A stretch of DNA of 64,000 bases from an uncultured Chloroflexia bacterium (GCA_963700285.1 CAVOXA010000010.1:1792001-1856000), one strand, 5' to 3'; shown: positions 20,134-36,168, numbered from the stretch's first letter. Program-made: numbers and translations. Notes: generated from the letters alone by a model not told the origin.

Positions 20134-21683
20134 GACACCGCCAGGTGTTCGTCCATGCCCGGGATGGGCAGCTCGATCTGGCCGCCGCCCGCCCCCTTGA
20201 ATCGGCAGTCCACCTCGCAGGCCAGGCACTCCACGCAACGGCCTTTCTTGGCCTCTTCACGGGTGATATTCAGCTCCGGCAGTCCCTCGTCGTTCAGCGA
20301 CAGGATCTGGCGGGCACATTCCTGGACGCAGACCTTGCTCTCGCAGGTCGCGCAGATGCTGTGGTCGTAGGTGATGGTTCCACCGGTGACCGTCTCAAAC
20401 TGGTAGAGACGCGGCTCGCCTATCCGCTCCGGGTACCGGCCGCTGCTTGGGCGTCACCAACTGGCCCTCGCGGATCAGCGCATCCAGGCGCTGGGCGCAG
20501 AAGTCGGGCGAGTCGTCCTTCCTGTAGCCCTCAACCGGCGCGGGCACCCAACCGTTGAGCCACTCCAGGATCTCGACAGCCTTGTCCTCGCTGTTGCCGC
20601 CCAGGCGGATCACCACCGGTACGTCGATCTGTTCTTCCAGAAAGGCCTTGACAAAGCCCCGCGCCGAGTGGAACTGTTCCTGGCTGGCCACGCCCGAGCC
20701 CGAACCAAAGTAACCGTCGACTGGGTCCGGAGGCCAGGACGATGCGGGCGGCGCGGTAGACTTTGCTGGCCGGTGGGTTGCCGCTGGTATCCACAAAGGT
20801 GGCCAGCTGGTAGCCCTGGCGCAGCACGGCATCCATGCTCATCATCGAGCCACCTCCGCCGGCGCCGTGAAAGCCGACATAGCCGTCGCCCTTCTCAAAG
20901 CCCTCGGCCATCTGGATAAAGTAGAAGGTGCCGCGATAGTCGTTGGCCTCGACGTCGTAGGCGATCTTTTCCAGAGCGGTGGGCGGGCGGTCGTATTCGC
21001 GGGCGATGCCGATGCCCAGGTCCTTGTGGCGGAAGACGCCATAGTCATCCACCGTGATGCGGCAGTCGGCGGCCATCAGGCTGCCGTCGGTCAGTTGCAC
21101 CAGGGGGTTGATCTCGGCCGCGCGGGCGTCGTACTCTTGTGCCACCTGGAAGAGGTTCATCAGCACGCCGCCCAGTCTGCAGTTGCAGCTTGCCGCCGAT
21201 GCCGGTCCGGCGCACCAGGTCCCGCGCCTGGAAATCCAGCAGCCCGGTGCCGACGTCGACGTGCATCCGCGCCACCCGGTCGGGGTGCTCCACGGCGATC
21301 TCTTCGATGCCGGTGCCCCCCACGCTGGAAAAGATGATCAGCGGCTGCTGGGCGGCGTCATCGATGATGACCCCGGCGTAGAACTCGCGGGCGATCTCGA
21401 CCCGCTGCTCGACCAGCACCTCCTGCACGACAAAGTTCTTGACCTTCATGCCCAGCATGTGCCGGGCTGCTTCCTCGGCCTGGGCCGGGTTGCTGGCCTT
21501 TTTGATGCCCCCCAGCCCGGCGCGGCCCGTGACCCAGGCCTGGGCCTTGACCATGACCTCGCCGCCGAGTTCCTCAGCGATCTGGCAGGCTTCCTCCGGG
21601 GTGCGGGCTACGCCCCCCTTGGGAATCGGGATCTTGAACTGCTTGAGCAGTTCCTTGCCTTGGTACTCGTGTAATCGTGCCAT
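20130..21683 (-). CDS. SucC-like CoA ligase beta subunit with C-terminal ferredoxin-like domain (frameshifted)
   Basis: MARLHEYQGKELL..VKAQ..GRAGLGGI, AEINPL, GAGGGGSMMSMD, DTSGNP, IRLGGN; C-terminus ICATCESKVCVQEC...CVECLACEVDC. Confidence 0.8.
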
Positions 21684-21816
21684 GTTTCCCTCCAACTTGC
21701 CGGATTGCTACGCAATTGGATACGAGGCTTGATTGTCAGGCATTCACTAGTCGTAGCTGTCATGACTGTTCGTCAAACGCAATGCGTCGGCCGTCAAACA
21801 TCAGTCGTCCGTGTCC

Positions 21817-22588: not shown

Positions 22589-23694
22589 TCACGATAAACC
22601 ATACTCGACGTTCAGGTCGGCACTGATCTGCTTCAGGCTGGCCTCGACCTTGGCCTCCAGCGGGATGCCATGCTCGGCGCGGCGGTCGGCCTCTTCGAAT
22701 TCTTTCTCGCCGTGGACATAGATGCGTTCCGCGCCCTCGGCCAGGTTGCCGCCCTTCAGTTCGCGGATCATGGCGTCCATGTCGGCCTTGAAGTCATCCG
22801 CTGCCCGGAAGGCATCGATGCGCCAGGCGCCGAAAGAAGTGGCCCAGGTCGGCAGGCAGTGCTTTGCCAGCGCCGTCCTTGGGATAGACTGAGGTCAGGA
22901 AGGCGGCGCCGGGCAGAACCGCCGAGAGGATCTCGACCATAAGGCCCATGCCGTAGCCCTTGTAGCCGCTGAACTCCTCGCCGGCGCCGCCCAGGGGCAG
23001 CAGGCCGCCGCCGGCGCGCCGGACAAAGTTGTCCAGGACCTGGCCCGCGTCTGGCCGTCGGCACCCCACGCTCGTCGGTGGCCCAGCCCAGGGGCATGGC
23101 TTTCTCCTGCCGGTGATAGACCTCCAGCTTGCCCCGGGGGACCGTGCTGGTGGCCATGTCCATGACGAAGGGGCGTTCTTCGCCGGCCGGCACGGCCAGG
23201 GCGATGGGGTTGGTGCCGTACATGGCATCGCGGCCAAAGGTGGGCACCACCAGGACAGCGGCGTTGGTGGTCGAGATGCCGATCATGTCCTCTTCCAGGG
23301 CCATCATGGCATAGTAGCCGGCGATGCCATAGTGGTTGCTGTTGCGCACGGTGGCAAACCCGCAGCCATACTCCCGGGCCTTTTCGATGACCATGGTCAT
23401 GGCCCGGTGGCTGACCGGCTGTCCCAGTCCCGCGCCGGCATCCAGGGTGACGGTGGTCGGCGTTTCGACGACGACCTTTTCTTCGGGCTGGGCGACCATA
23501 ACGCCGTCGCGCAGGCCATTCACATAGCGGGCCAGCCGGGCCACACCGTGCGAGTCGATGCCCCGCAGGTTGGCCTGGATCAGGACGTCGGCGGTGATCC
23601 GGGCATCCTCCGGGGACACACCCATCTTTTCAAAGACCCGGACGCAGTATGCCTGCAGCGCCTCCGGATGAACGATGCTGCTTATGTCTGCCAT
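22589..23694 (-). CDS. Ldh_2-family (malate/L-lactate-type) NAD(P) oxidoreductase (frameshifted)
   Basis: GIDSHGVARL, VRNSNHYG, GTNPIA, DMATS, YKGYG, IYVHGEKE. Confidence 0.9.
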
Positions 23695-28407: not shown

Positions 28408-29208
28408 ATGGCCCCAACAGAACCGATTCGCGATCCAGAAAATGCCGAACATAGATCCCTACAACCCTACTTCCCCCAAGCGCAAGACCGTGTCCTCGAC
28501 ATCGGCTGCGGCGACGGCAGGCTGACCTGGCTCCTTGCCCGCACCGCCGCCCTCGCAGCCGGCATCGACATCGACCTGGACGAACTCCGAAAAGCGCCAG
28601 GCGCGCGCCTCGATGCAGTCTCCGCCGCAGTCTGCTTTCCAGCGGCATCCAGCGAAGCCATGCCCTTTGCCAGCCGCTCCTTCGACCTGGCCACCTTCAC
28701 TTGGTCCCTCTGATGAGTTCCCCCTGAGGGCATGGTCCATGCCCTGGCAGAGACCTGGCGTGTGCTCAAACCCGGAGGCAGGTTGATCGACCTCCGCCCC
28801 TATTCCTCAGGCTGGCCCCTCGAGGTCTTCACCCTGGACACACAGATCCTCGCCGGCCCCCTCGACGATTCTATCGGTATAGCCTTGGACATCGCCTCTA
28901 ACAACGCCATCCTGGAGGCCCTCCAAAACGGCTGGTTCCAGGCAGAAACCAAGACTACCTTCGAATACACCTACTACTGGCACACAGTCGACGACATGCA
29001 CGACTACCTACAAGAAAACTGGCAAAAGTCAGCGACCGTCCCCGAGCCCATCCTCTCCAAAGCCCGTCGCCTCGTCCAGTCTACCACCGAACCCACCCAG
29101 ATCCGCATCCGCAGGAGCATGACCCTAGCCAGCTACAGAAGCCCAGCGACCGCCACTAGCCGCCCGTATCCAGCCCCCGACCACATCCCCAGAAAGTCCT
29201 TCAGCTGA
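28408..29208 (+). CDS. Class I SAM-dependent methyltransferase with in-frame TGA-TGA (probable Sec-Sec selenoprotein), 266 aa on readthrough
   Basis: VLDIGCGDG motif I and MPFASRSFDL; TWSL-TGA-TGA-VPPEGMVHALAETWRVLKPGG continues in the same frame; SECIS-like hairpin follows. Confidence 0.8.
28727..28745 (+). promoter_or_regulatory. Candidate bacterial SECIS hairpin
   Basis: AGGGCATG-GTC-CATGCCCT perfect 8-bp stem; GGUC apex 18-21 nt after the UGA codons. Confidence 0.7.
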
Positions 29209-29351
29209 GATGTCGGTGGGGGGTTGTGGGCGGCCCAATTATATGATCCATAGAGGTCTCTTTGGGGACAGATTGAGTGATCCCCTGCCGGTAGGCCAGA
29301 GTCTTCTGGCCTGAAGAGGCTCTATCCTGATCATTTAATGTGGCCGGTAGC

Positions 29352-33806: not shown

Positions 33807-34208
33807 GTGGGCTCGATCCAGTGTGACAATTGTGGAGCCATGCTCTCTGAAGCAGATTTGTTCTGCGGTGAATGTGGTGTGCCGCGTCCTCTGTCTGATG
33901 GAGAGGATAGCCCGTCGCCAGACACTTCCCCAGCGCCAGCTGCTGCCCCCCCACTGGCGCCGCCGCCAGGTGGACATGGAACCGGTTGGCGTGTAGCAGC
34001 CCGCATCTTGGTTGTGTTGGGAGTTCTCACCTGTCTGGCATCGGTCCTGGTCTTTCTGTTCGCTGGCCTCCTCGAGTACGAATCCATGACCGGTCTGGAA
34101 AATTGGCTATTCTCCGCTTTCTGCTGTCTTTTGCCCATCGGCGGCGTGGGCGCTGTCCTGATCGCCGTGGGTACTGCAGTCTGGTACAGACGCCTTAGGG
34201 ATGTCTGA
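33807..34208 (+). CDS. Zinc-ribbon membrane protein
   Basis: CDNCG...FCGECG, Pro-rich linker, two transmembrane helices. Confidence 0.7.
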   Translation: MGSIQCDNCGAMLSEADLFCGECGVPRPLSDGEDSPSPDTSPAPAAAPPLAPPPGGHGTGWRVAARILVVLGVLTCLASVLVFLFAGLLEYESMTGLENWLFSAFCCLLPIGGVGAVLIAVGTAVWYRRLRDV

Positions 34209-35496
34209 ACGACCGATGATTGAACGTGTAGCTATGTTGAGTGTCCATACCTGTCCACTTGCCACCCTGGGTGGCAAGGAGACAGGGGGTATGAACGTCT
34301 ATGTCCGTGACCTGAGTCGCGAGCTTGGGCAGCGTGGAATTGCCGTGGATTGCTTCACCCGCTCCCAAAATCCCAATATCCCACGTATTAGCACCAGGTT
34401 GGGGCCCAACTGCCGCGTTATCCACTTGCCGGCCGGCCCCGAGATCCCCTACGACAAGAACAGCGTCGTCGACCATCTGCCCCAGTTTGTGCGCGGAGCG
34501 CTGGATCTCGCCAGGCGTGAGGGCCTGCGTTATGATGTGATCCACAGCCATTACTGGCTCTCGGGCTTGGCCGCCCGCGAGCTTCGTCGCGTTTGGGGCG
34601 CCCCCATCATTCAGATGTTCCATACCCTTGGGCACATGAAGAACAGTGTGGCCTCCGGCCCCCATGAGTGGGAGGCAGCGCGGCGCATCGAGGGGGAAGC
34701 TGAGGTCATGGCACTCGCAGATCGTCTGGTAGCAGCTACGCCTTTGGAAAGGGCGCAGATGGTCTGGCTCTATGGAGCCAACGCCAGCAAAATGGATGTT
34801 GTCCCCCCCGGTGTGGATCTCGATCTCTTCCAACCCATTCCGCCAAAAGAGGCCAAGCACATCCTGGGGTTGCCTCCTGAGCGCCGTATCGTCCTCTTTG
34901 TGGGCCGGATCGAACCATTGAAGGGCATAGACACACTGTTACGAGCCATGGCCCTTGTTGTGCCCGAGATTCCTTGCTGGCAGGATGATCTGTCGGTTGT
35001 CATAATTGGCGGAGCGCCAGGAGTGGGTATCGAAAAGGTAAATGACGAGCTTGCCCGCCTGGAAAACCTCCGGGCTGAATTGGGTATCCAGGACCTGGTT
35101 ACCTTCCAGGGCGCCCAAGACCAGGATACACTCGTCTATTACTATTCCGCCGCGGACATGGTGGTCATGCCCTCCCACTACGAATCCTTTGGCATGGTGG
35201 CCCTGGAGGCCATGGCCTGTGGGACCCCGGTGGTGGCTTCCAAGGTTGGCGGGCTGACTTATAGCGTGCAAGATGGCCAGACAGGATTCCTGGTTCCCGA
35301 GCGCGATGCTGAAGCGCTGGCTGCCAAGATCCGTTTGTTGCTTTGTGATGATGTTCTTCGCCAGGCATTGAGCCTGCAGGCAGCTCAATGGTCGCGCAAC
35401 TATGGCTGGCCTGCCATTTCCGATCAAATCCTAGAACTCTACCAGCGGGTTCAATTGGCTCTCATGCCAGCAGCAGCTGCAGTTGGTTCCGGCTAA
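34201..35496 (+). CDS. GT4 glycosyltransferase, MshA-like
   Basis: HTCPLATLGGKETGGMNVYV, HSHYWLSG, FVGRIEPLKG, PSHYESFGMVALEAMACG. Confidence 0.85.
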   Translation: MSERPMIERVAMLSVHTCPLATLGGKETGGMNVYVRDLSRELGQRGIAVDCFTRSQNPNIPRISTRLGPNCRVIHLPAGPEIPYDKNSVVDHLPQFVRGALDLARREGLRYDVIHSHYWLSGLAARELRRVWGAPIIQMFHTLGHMKNSVASGPHEWEAARRIEGEAEVMALADRLVAATPLERAQMVWLYGANASKMDVVPPGVDLDLFQPIPPKEAKHILGLPPERRIVLFVGRIEPLKGIDTLLRAMALVVPEIPCWQDDLSVVIIGGAPGVGIEKVNDELARLENLRAELGIQDLVTFQGAQDQDTLVYYYSAADMVVMPSHYESFGMVALEAMACGTPVVASKVGGLTYSVQDGQTGFLVPERDAEALAAKIRLLLCDDVLRQALSLQAAQWSRNYGWPAISDQILELYQRVQLALMPAAAAVGSG

Positions 35497-35505
35497 ATCC
35501 CCCCT

Positions 35506-36168
35506 GTGCAGCTGCACGAAATTGCCGGATTCATCCAAAGACATTGGAGCATACAGTCGGCAGTAGCCGAAACTGCCGCCAGCTACGATCAAGACGCTGC
35601 CCAATATGCAGCTATGTGGGCCAATTTGCGTCTGGAAAGGGCACTGGCTGCTTTTGCCAGTCGGGTCGTTGCCCCCCGGCGCGTGTTGGACCTGGGCTGC
35701 GGTCCGGGCCGCGACATCGACTATCTGGCGCAACTTGGCTGTTGGGGCGTGGGTTTGGATCTGTCGCCTGGAATGTTGGTTGAGGCTCGGCGCCGGTTCC
35801 CAGCGGCACCCCTTGTCCAGGCGGATTTGCGTTCTGTACCCCTTGCGGATGGTACCTTTGATGGCGTCTGGGCCTGTGCCTCGCTGCTACACCTGCCCCG
35901 GTGCCAGTTGCCCATCGCCCTGGCACAGATCGCCCGCCTACTGAAACGGCCCGGGGGCGTGCTCTATCTGGCACTGAAAGATGGTCAAGGGGAACAATGG
36001 CTCGCTGACCACAAAGGCCATCGCCGTTTGTTCTCGTTCTACCAATTCTCCGAGGTGGCAACGTCACTACATCAGGCCAAGTTTCAGATCGTCGAAGGCT
36101 GGGTAGATCCTGACCAGGCAGGGCGTGACAGATCCTGGATCAACGTTGTTGCTCAAATGCAGAGATAG
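35506..36168 (+). CDS. Class I SAM-dependent methyltransferase
   Basis: VLDLGCGPGRD, FDGVWACASLLH. Confidence 0.85.
   Translation: MQLHEIAGFIQRHWSIQSAVAETAASYDQDAAQYAAMWANLRLERALAAFASRVVAPRRVLDLGCGPGRDIDYLAQLGCWGVGLDLSPGMLVEARRRFPAAPLVQADLRSVPLADGTFDGVWACASLLHLPRCQLPIALAQIARLLKRPGGVLYLALKDGQGEQWLADHKGHRRLFSFYQFSEVATSLHQAKFQIVEGWVDPDQAGRDRSWINVVAQMQR

Follow-up and report, generated by a model that had tools for sequence, protein, structure and literature searches.

Tandem UGA codons before a single conserved hairpin in a predicted Sec-Sec methyltransferase family of Chloroflexota and other phyla

Introduction

Bacteria insert selenocysteine (Sec) by a scheme in which one UGA codon is served by one hairpin at a set distance. 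The consensus for this hairpin, the bacterial SECIS element (bSECIS), comprises a loop of 3–9 nt with a G within the first two loop positions, a stem of 4–16 bp, a spacing of 16–37 nt, and a minimum free energy (MFE) of at most -7.5 kcal/mol (PMC13188914, section 5). The motifs listed for ArsM-type selenoproteins are UxxG or CxxU in the available part of Table 1 of PMC13188914. That table covers 119 prokaryotic families (2026) and, in the same part, holds no UU motif; the closest are CU, UC, UxxU, and UxxxxU, and some rows read '-' and may conceal a UU. Consecutive Sec residues have been described in an algal PDI_e with a GUGUU motif, which the available text of PMC7539508 presents as the first selenoprotein of this kind.

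Here, we describe a gene in which two adjacent in-frame UGA codons are followed by a single hairpin. The gene lies in a 64,000-nucleotide stretch of DNA from an uncultured Chloroflexia bacterium (GCA_963700285.1 CAVOXA010000010.1:1792001-1856000), referred to below as the window. The first-pass annotation of this stretch had proposed that two adjacent Sec residues are decoded from one SECIS, and the proposal is supported by the interchange of UGA and Cys codons at the site, by a covarying hairpin, and by the Sec genes of the genome. Judging by sequence comparison, the tandem UGA is real, conserved, and almost certainly recoded. We have considerable confidence in the reading as a whole, that of a predicted Sec-Sec methyltransferase with the pair at its acceptor site, likely for a soft acceptor.

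The gene and its reading frame

The features of the gene are collected in Table 1. In translation, both TGA triplets are in frame with the ATG at 28408, and readthrough of both results in a single frame of 266 aa that ends with the TGA at 29206–29208. The peptide around the pair is ...FTWSL-U-U-VPPEGMVHALAETWRVLKPGG, and the final ~20 residues are outside the conserved family region. Translation with table 11 gives two ORFs instead, 28408–28713 and 28732–29208.

Table 1. Coordinates of the gene, its tandem UGA codons, and its hairpin in the window
Feature	Position	Strand	Basis
Full gene, 266-aa class I SAM-dependent methyltransferase if both UGA codons are Sec	28408..29208	+	Pfam, AlphaFold2 model
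SAM-binding motif I VLDIGCGDG, residues 29–37	28492..28518	+	Translation, alignment of 151 listed loci
First in-frame UGA, residue 102, predicted Sec	28711..28713	+	UGA in 122/151, Cys in 28/151 listed loci
Second in-frame UGA, residue 103, predicted Sec	28714..28716	+	UGA in 114/151, Cys in 35/151 listed loci
Predicted bacterial SECIS, 8-bp stem and GUC loop	28727..28745	+	Folding, conservation, covariation
ATG within the hairpin stem, gene callers' start for the C-terminal fragment (MVHAL...)	28732..28734	+	Database fragments

The gene stands by itself. It sits between a gene for a PKD-domain protein and two Yip1-like genes, beyond which lies a gene that we take, from its translation, to be recA. 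A consensus scan at the gene found neither a sigma-70 promoter upstream nor a terminator. A 272-nt contig of the public run X3 covers 28597–28868 with three differences, none of them listed at the TGA pair; this support comes from contigs, not raw reads, and no single run spanned the whole gene. The coverage of one RNA run is restricted to 29150–29300, i.e., it does not include the UGA site. For this gene, PADLOC returns only a generic methyltransferase-domain match and the ESM Atlas only generic class I methyltransferase clusters. Elsewhere in the window, at 34201–36168, an MshA-like glycosyltransferase gene (399 bits, under the cut-off of 462.5) is followed by a second class I methyltransferase gene, which has ASLLHL where the 266-aa protein has WSLUU.

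Relatives and their codon pairs

A comparison of 61 related genomes found, besides the source, two whose match extends along most of the protein, one at 76–82% identity and the other at 30%. In each, the corresponding codons are again TGA TGA and the hairpin is the same. A DNA pattern scan of 401 genomes of the class required TGM-TGM and GGNATG, which biased it to the hairpin, and it was set aside; of its 23 matches, one recovered the gene described here and 8 fell in frames unrelated to it. Profile-pattern searches of genome and metagenome collections gave the best 80 of 140 and the best 80 of 194 relatives, with one of the two profile patterns being motif I and thus blind to the UGA site. 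A 150-bit threshold removed 25 of the 80 loci in the first set, which were methyltransferases unrelated to this one. Duplicates, defined by an identical 150-nt window, were also dropped (5 in the first set and 18 in the second). Together with the class scan, this leaves a sample of 151 distinct loci, which are the listed loci of the counts below.

The codon pair in the 151 listed loci is UGA-UGA in 93, UGA-Cys in 28, Cys-UGA in 21, Cys-Cys in 7, TGA-TAA in 1, and Gly-Trp in 1. At least one UGA is present at the site in 143, a chalcogen residue or UGA occupies both positions in 149, and any other stop near the site is absent in 147, with identity to the source protein going down to 22%. A Trp codon at just one of the two positions is found in 0/151, the sole TGG being that of the Gly-Trp outlier. 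A profile scan of the 401 genomes that used no UGA-site pattern, with seven candidates scored per genome, gave 25 loci in 23 genomes; 22 have two TGA codons, 3 have one, and 0 have none. The check for homologues proposed in the first-pass annotation thus came out in its favour, all four combinations of UGA and Cys occurring at precisely this site. Three genomes (G185, G388, and G423) have two paralogues each, in the combinations UU+UU, UC+UC, and UU+UC, where U denotes UGA and C denotes Cys.

The named hosts of the listed loci are mostly Anaerolineae and other Chloroflexota. The others belong to Acidobacteriota, Actinomycetota, Gemmatimonadota, Armatimonadota, and Dormibacterota, and one is a thaumarchaeote (Cys-Cys). 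Eight full-length database proteins can be placed in the family, and all are Cys-Cys with a relaxed GMVHAL peptide. A search with the C-terminal profile against a library of representatives at 50% identity gave 712 proteins with E <= 1e-10. Of the 150 best, 145 are fragments (102 of them starting with MVHAL), and the remaining 5, which are full-length, all carry Cys-Cys. Because so many representatives match and nearly all of the best ones are truncated, a family of considerable size is going unrecorded.

A few loci have pairs or neighbours of other kinds. The TGA-TAA pair (L089:4286–4291, genome G452) is followed by an open frame and keeps all 8 bp of the hairpin, and the tRNA-Sec of the genome has the ordinary anticodon UCA; the TAA may be a recent nonsense change, a base error, or a case of SECIS-aided UAA reading. 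A Cys-UGA locus without the hairpin (L236) resembles the Cys-Cys clade and is possibly a pseudogene. The Gly-Trp locus (L220) has no hairpin. A gene next to the L197 locus (about 800–1480, + strand) encodes a different methyltransferase with DRVLCC, i.e., with Cys-Cys at the position aligned to UU, a broader parallel for the Cys-Cys state.

Predicted fold and position of the pair

Pfam methyltransferase domains (PF13649/PF08241, Methyltransf_25/11) match residues 29–127 over the cut-off, with E about 1e-15. The class I signatures are present, namely the acidic-x-GxGxG of motif I and an acidic residue after strand beta-2; D31/G33/G35/G37 and the next residue, R38, are conserved at 99–100% and D54 at 89% in the 151 listed loci. 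The AlphaFold2 model of residues 7–245 has a pLDDT of 92.9 and a pTM of 0.88, and the 50 best VIA-align rows (Z 14.9–18.0) are methyltransferases or methyltransferase-fold proteins, nearly all of which span the whole model. On this model, the product is predicted to be a class I SAM-dependent methyltransferase. No single fold match stands out (Z 18.0 to 14.9); many small-molecule methyltransferases score about equally.

The UU pair aligns without gaps to His140-His141 in the SLHH of RebM (3bus; the numbering is counted from the alignment) and to the Cys-His in the SLCH of TleD. It also lies 3–4 residues past the G/C of the ArsM ISN(C/G)V segment. The initial guess that the pair belongs to the post-motif LHH/LCx segment thus agrees with the alignment. 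We take the positions aligned to UU to face the methyl acceptor, and RebM His140/His141 to be catalytic. Since the pair occupies the post-beta-4 segment of the RebM histidines, 3–4 residues past the position of the ArsM SNCV cysteine, a role in the acceptor pocket is suggested, and by this analogy the Sec pair is probably functional there.

Possible chemistry and gene context

Two selenolates could chelate or deprotonate a soft acceptor beside the SAM methyl. The pair may also cycle through a vicinal diselenide, for which the cysteine-pair chemistry of ArsM is the model. That a bis-selenolate acts on a soft acceptor, perhaps with such a cycle, is a tentative proposal that we would put somewhat short of an even chance. 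The same holds for the predicted class of substrate, a soft acceptor in the form of a trivalent metalloid, a thiol, or a selenol. The full combination, in which a Sec-Sec site made from one SECIS engaged twice methylates trivalent metalloids or Se/S species by a route separate from ArsM, is possible but less likely than not.

Both residues could be Sec and nevertheless serve as a redox switch (a vicinal diselenide) or as a metal site controlling the binding of SAM or substrate, the methyl group being passed to an ordinary O, N, or C acceptor. Such a role would fit the closest solved folds, which are natural-product and uncharacterised small-molecule methyltransferases, as well as the lack of a metalloid-resistance operon around most listed loci and the free substitution of Cys at either position. 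However, the RebM His-His position and the chalcogen residue or UGA at both positions in all but two of the 151 listed loci fit chemistry as well as a switch. We regard the switch or metal site as unlikely, yet as a serious contender.

Class I small-molecule methyltransferases transfer the methyl group directly as a rule. This speaks against a further possibility, that one of two Sec selenolates takes the SAM methyl and forms a covalent methyl-Sec intermediate or a one-shot methyl sink, and makes it rather improbable. In its favour, selenolate is a strong nucleophile and the pair adjoins the predicted SAM site. A Sec form of methylated-DNA-protein-cysteine methyltransferase also appears among the selenoproteins in the available part of PMC13188914.

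Gene context offers weak hints in support of the soft acceptor. There is no family-wide operon, the largest neighbour cluster being clade-bound and found at 20/151 listed loci (flanks of 1.5–4 kb, often shorter). Genes for DUF1801, alcohol dehydrogenase, upp, and amidase are found near Anaerolineales loci. In the flanks of 5/151 listed loci (L114, L171, L226, L238, and L250), three of which are probably one clade, lies an ArsM-like gene that itself contains an in-frame UGA. In one clade (L051–L056 and L090), yqeB, a selenium-dependent molybdenum cofactor gene, is beside the gene in 7 loci, on the opposite strand, and the gene comes after xdhC in 5 loci, on the same strand.

The ArsM-like neighbours (L114:6534–7346, L250:412–1191, L238:1390–2190, and those of L226 and L171) carry their UGA in W-x-G/A-U-[IV]-[AS]-GA, and where ArsM has the SNCV cysteine they have Gly. 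Two that were tested fall under all NCBIfam cut-offs, and the group may be an unmodelled stand-alone Sec-ArsM subfamily. In the neighbour of L250, the UGA is ~50 residues after the segment aligned to UU. The source genome itself has no match to ArsM.

The hairpin

The hairpin is formed by AGGGCATG (28727–28734), a GTC loop (28735–28737), and CATGCCCT (28738–28745), and it also codes for the conserved GMVHAL peptide. Its loop starts 21 nt past the first UGA and 18 nt past the second. A perfect hairpin with its apex 18–21 nt after the UGA codons had been noted at the outset, and the hairpin is present in both the MFE fold (-16.6 kcal/mol) and the centroid fold (-12.7 kcal/mol). With the rules applied by hand, the 3-nt GUC loop, the 8 bp, and the spacings of 21 and 18 fall within the bSECIS consensus for either UGA. 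The folding energy of a 55-nt window is not unusual for GC-rich sequence (z = 0.14; 109/200 shuffles fold as well) and is not counted as support. By criteria chosen after the site was seen, hairpins with 7 or more Watson-Crick pairs and a triloop that starts with G occur in the genome at spacing 18 in 5/196,041 TGA triplets, and at spacing 13–34 in 5/4,634 TGATGA sites.

Among the listed loci, at least 6 of the 8 pairs form at the fixed offset in 141/142 scorable UGA loci. The exception is L236 (2/8), and one UGA locus, cut by a contig end, could not be scored. The 7 listed Cys-Cys loci have 4, 4, 4, 2, 2, 3, and 6 pairs, and the one with 6 pairs has a CCG loop; the hairpin is thus lost or without its G loop in all of them. 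In 42 aligned loci, which were chosen for spread from the first 64 and are all UGA-bearing, 94.9% of cells pair, compared with 21–57% in slid controls. Two-sided changes occur in these loci at 5/8 pairs, for example G-C to A-U in 7 and A-U to G-C in 4, as counted in related sequences and not as independent events. The hairpin is therefore kept at a fixed offset and covaries in UGA relatives, in keeping with the early suggestion that it would be conserved.

Changes in the stem alter the protein (GMVHAL becomes SMVHAL, GVVHAL, or GAVGAL), yet pairing is kept. Synonymous codons are fixed in the stem and variable in the loop and outside. Within the stem, Gly is GGC in 47/49 cases, His is CAT in 53/56, and Ala is GCC or GCT only. 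To judge from these alignments, the hairpin is under selection as RNA.

Selenocysteine genes of the source genome and its relatives

In the source genome, which is 89% complete with 6.5% contamination, selA (579 bits), selB, and selD all score over the cut-off, and there is a tRNA-Sec (selC) with anticodon UCA. All four genes that the first-pass annotation had named for the decoding are present, with selB and selD frameshifted in the assembly. Long frames in the genome end in TGA more often than in either other stop codon (1107/2340), so TGA does not serve as a sense codon throughout the genome. At two UGA sites in what are presumably formate dehydrogenase genes (U-HSATV), the stem has 8 pairs, the loop is GTC, and the spacing is 19; at those of two presumed GrdB/PrdB-like genes, the loop is GTT and the spacing 18. 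The names are taken from sequence motifs, and the spacing at these Sec sites is 17–19 overall. The like loops and spacings at the other Sec sites make the methyltransferase hairpin one of the local type.

Six more UGA sites with SECIS-like hairpins lie in protein-like frames of the genome (G000), at C1:551583 (+), C1:566142 (+), C14:582079 (-), C15:122711 (+), C5:248560 (+), and C22:134598 (+). Their contexts are EGEG-U-GG (twice), EPCG-U-GK, APGG-U-G, VPV-U-PVC, and VPA-U-PLC, suggesting a rich selenoproteome.

A selA match is present in 54/58 genomes with a UGA locus versus 0/3 with a Cys-Cys locus, tallies that come from incomplete metagenome assemblies of related genomes and do not amount to a statistical test. 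Of the 4 UGA-locus genomes without a selA match, 2 have selB and 2 have no match to either gene. The Cys-Cys genomes have no selB over the cut-off. Within Actinomycetota, selA is found in 7/7 UGA-locus genomes versus 0/2 Cys-Cys genomes, and outside Chloroflexota it is found in 14/16 UGA-locus genomes. Co-occurrence with selA carries little weight within the class, where the background is 349/401 genomes (a tally that includes the unpublished G357).

Proposed decoding of two codons with one hairpin

From the sequence evidence, both UGA codons are predicted with high confidence to be Sec. SelB would bind the one hairpin twice, initially when the A site holds the first UGA and the loop is at 21 nt, and then again when it holds the next codon and the loop is at 18 nt. 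Such successive use of one hairpin is, in our estimate, highly likely. In the UC loci, the hairpin is retained at a distance of 21 nt from the UGA, and in the CU loci at 18 nt. Since both forms keep it at the same place, each codon appears to be decodable alone, and the simplest reading of UU would be that the hairpin is used twice. In a tree of 72 proteins, which has a midpoint root and does not polarise ancestry, UU occurs throughout; there are 11 changes for UC (10 of them forced by starred branches), 3 for CU, and 4 for CC. In this tree, the two Cys-Cys proteins of Actinomycetota group as sisters of Cys-UGA proteins.

A single UGA is recoded at 30–40% in E. coli, according to the available part of PMC4513850. 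Two in a row would be costly: if the events are independent, the UU yield would be about 9–16%, which may explain why one of the codons has gone back to Cys again and again. This cost and the many returns in the tree could also be taken to mean that SelB serves only one UGA, and that the other is read by a near-cognate tRNA (Trp/Cys) or acts as a stop, so that little or no Sec-Sec protein is made. However, UU is the commonest state (93/151 listed loci) and extends across deep branches, both single-UGA classes share the same hairpin, and no listed locus has a Trp codon at one position only. Decoding of one UGA alone is therefore very unlikely.

Still less probable, to the point of being barely credible, is that the UGA codons are true stops between two genes, one for an N-terminal SAM piece and one for a C-terminal MVHAL piece, with the hairpin controlling their coupling. 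The C-terminal piece is indeed stored as a separate protein in 145 of the best 150 library matches, and its ATG is conserved in 89% of listed loci. However, the cut would fall inside the Rossmann fold, just after strand beta-4, which makes two separate proteins unlikely. In addition, the stem ATG is swapped for GTG, GTC, or GCC in some loci with pairing kept, Cys codons replace either UGA, and full-length Cys-Cys homologues occur in which the hairpin is lost.

Assembly quality

The first-pass annotation considered the region free of frameshift noise. This is true of the neighbourhood of the gene, which looks intact, but not of the assembly as a whole, which is frameshifted at window ~20.4–23.7 kb, in selB, and in selD. 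In the window, a gene that is presumably succinyl-CoA synthetase beta-like (20395–21695, - strand) is spread over three frames, and one that is presumably dehydrogenase-like (22768–23694, - strand) has a frame shift; both names come from translations. The selB gene (L003, G000:C10:2126900–2128950) is split by frameshifts, and so is selD (L011, G000:C9:56600–57750), which has its own in-frame TGA in AAG-U-ASK. The frameshifts in these two genes are probably assembly indels. Genome G001, from the same genus, has a copy of the methyltransferase gene whose frame shifts near residues 70–79, probably through an assembly error.

As the assembly is frameshifted elsewhere, the case for recoding rests on conservation across genomes and not on assembly quality. 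A pseudogene or a sequencing error, which the frameshifts in other genes might bring to mind, is refuted by that conservation, the same two codons being TGA-TGA in 92 other distinct listed loci and the X3 contig spanning the site with no difference listed there.

Significance

The natural UU, UC, CU, and CC alleles on one fixed hairpin make the reloading of SelB on the same SECIS, and the width of the permitted spacing, testable, and they have a bearing on the production of multi-Sec proteins in bacteria. A vicinal Sec-Sec at a methyltransferase acceptor site is absent from the lists covered. The Cys-Cys homologues (P0221 and P0008) are a means of finding the activity without Sec expression. 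If the reading is true, there are widespread bacterial enzymes with a Se-based methylation route separate from that of ArsM, which protein databases fail to show because gene callers split the gene at the UGA pair.

Comparison with known systems

No bacterial Sec-Sec protein or Sec-Sec methyltransferase family appears in the available parts of the selenoprotein literature covered (the 2022 Haft preprint, BSepDB, and deep-Sep), nor in those of PMC9201040, PMC7948815, and PMC3834832. The word 'methyltransferase' is absent from the text of the BSepDB supplement (~4.0 million characters), which may not list families, and this absence is given no weight. In NCBIfam (release June 2026), no model reaches its cut-off with the 266-aa protein. 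By the lists checked, this is a new selenoprotein family, with Haft and Tolstoy 2025 or supplements being sources that could bear on priority.

The best matches in sequence and fold are of the RebM/AtmM/TleD/YcgJ type (E 2e-16 to 4e-12, Z 16–18, rmsd 3.2–5.7 over 185–213 residues). These proteins differ in having about 20% identity, no selenium, and a different C-terminal lid. The His-His of the RebM-type SLHH is absent here, UGA or Cys replacing both His residues. The substrates of the RebM group are not transferable.

The ArsM selenoproteins (NF008823; NF041536, ArsM_DUF2284_UU; NF041537, ArsM_AhpD_UU; NF047649, MTase_UXPK_star) are alike in combining the class I fold with Sec. Their models match only the Rossmann part of the 266-aa protein, with scores of 25.3, 32.3, 34.5, and 40.2 bits against cut-offs of 263, 575, 510, and 460, respectively. 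The ArsM-type Sec is in UxxG after strand beta-5, whereas UU aligns with the DL/NL of ISNGVxxL, ~50 residues before the UGA of the ArsM-like neighbours. MduS (NF045649, methyltransferase-domain double selenoprotein) likewise has a methyltransferase domain and two Sec residues; however, the score is 33.6 against a cut-off of 380, its listed motif is CxxU (338 positions), and there is no CxxU at the UU site.

The algal PDI_e shares consecutive Sec residues with the present family, but it is eukaryotic and thioredoxin-like, in contrast to the methyltransferase fold and WSLUU motif described here. Its SECIS is of the eukaryotic type in the 3' UTR, so that no re-engagement at a near-fixed distance within the coding region is needed. 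The closest likeness in decoding is to the fdhF-type selenoproteins with an intragenic SECIS, which have a UGA aligned with Cys, a G-U loop 16–37 nt downstream, and SelA/B/C/D. Unlike these one-UGA systems, the family described here has two adjacent UGA codons that share one hairpin.
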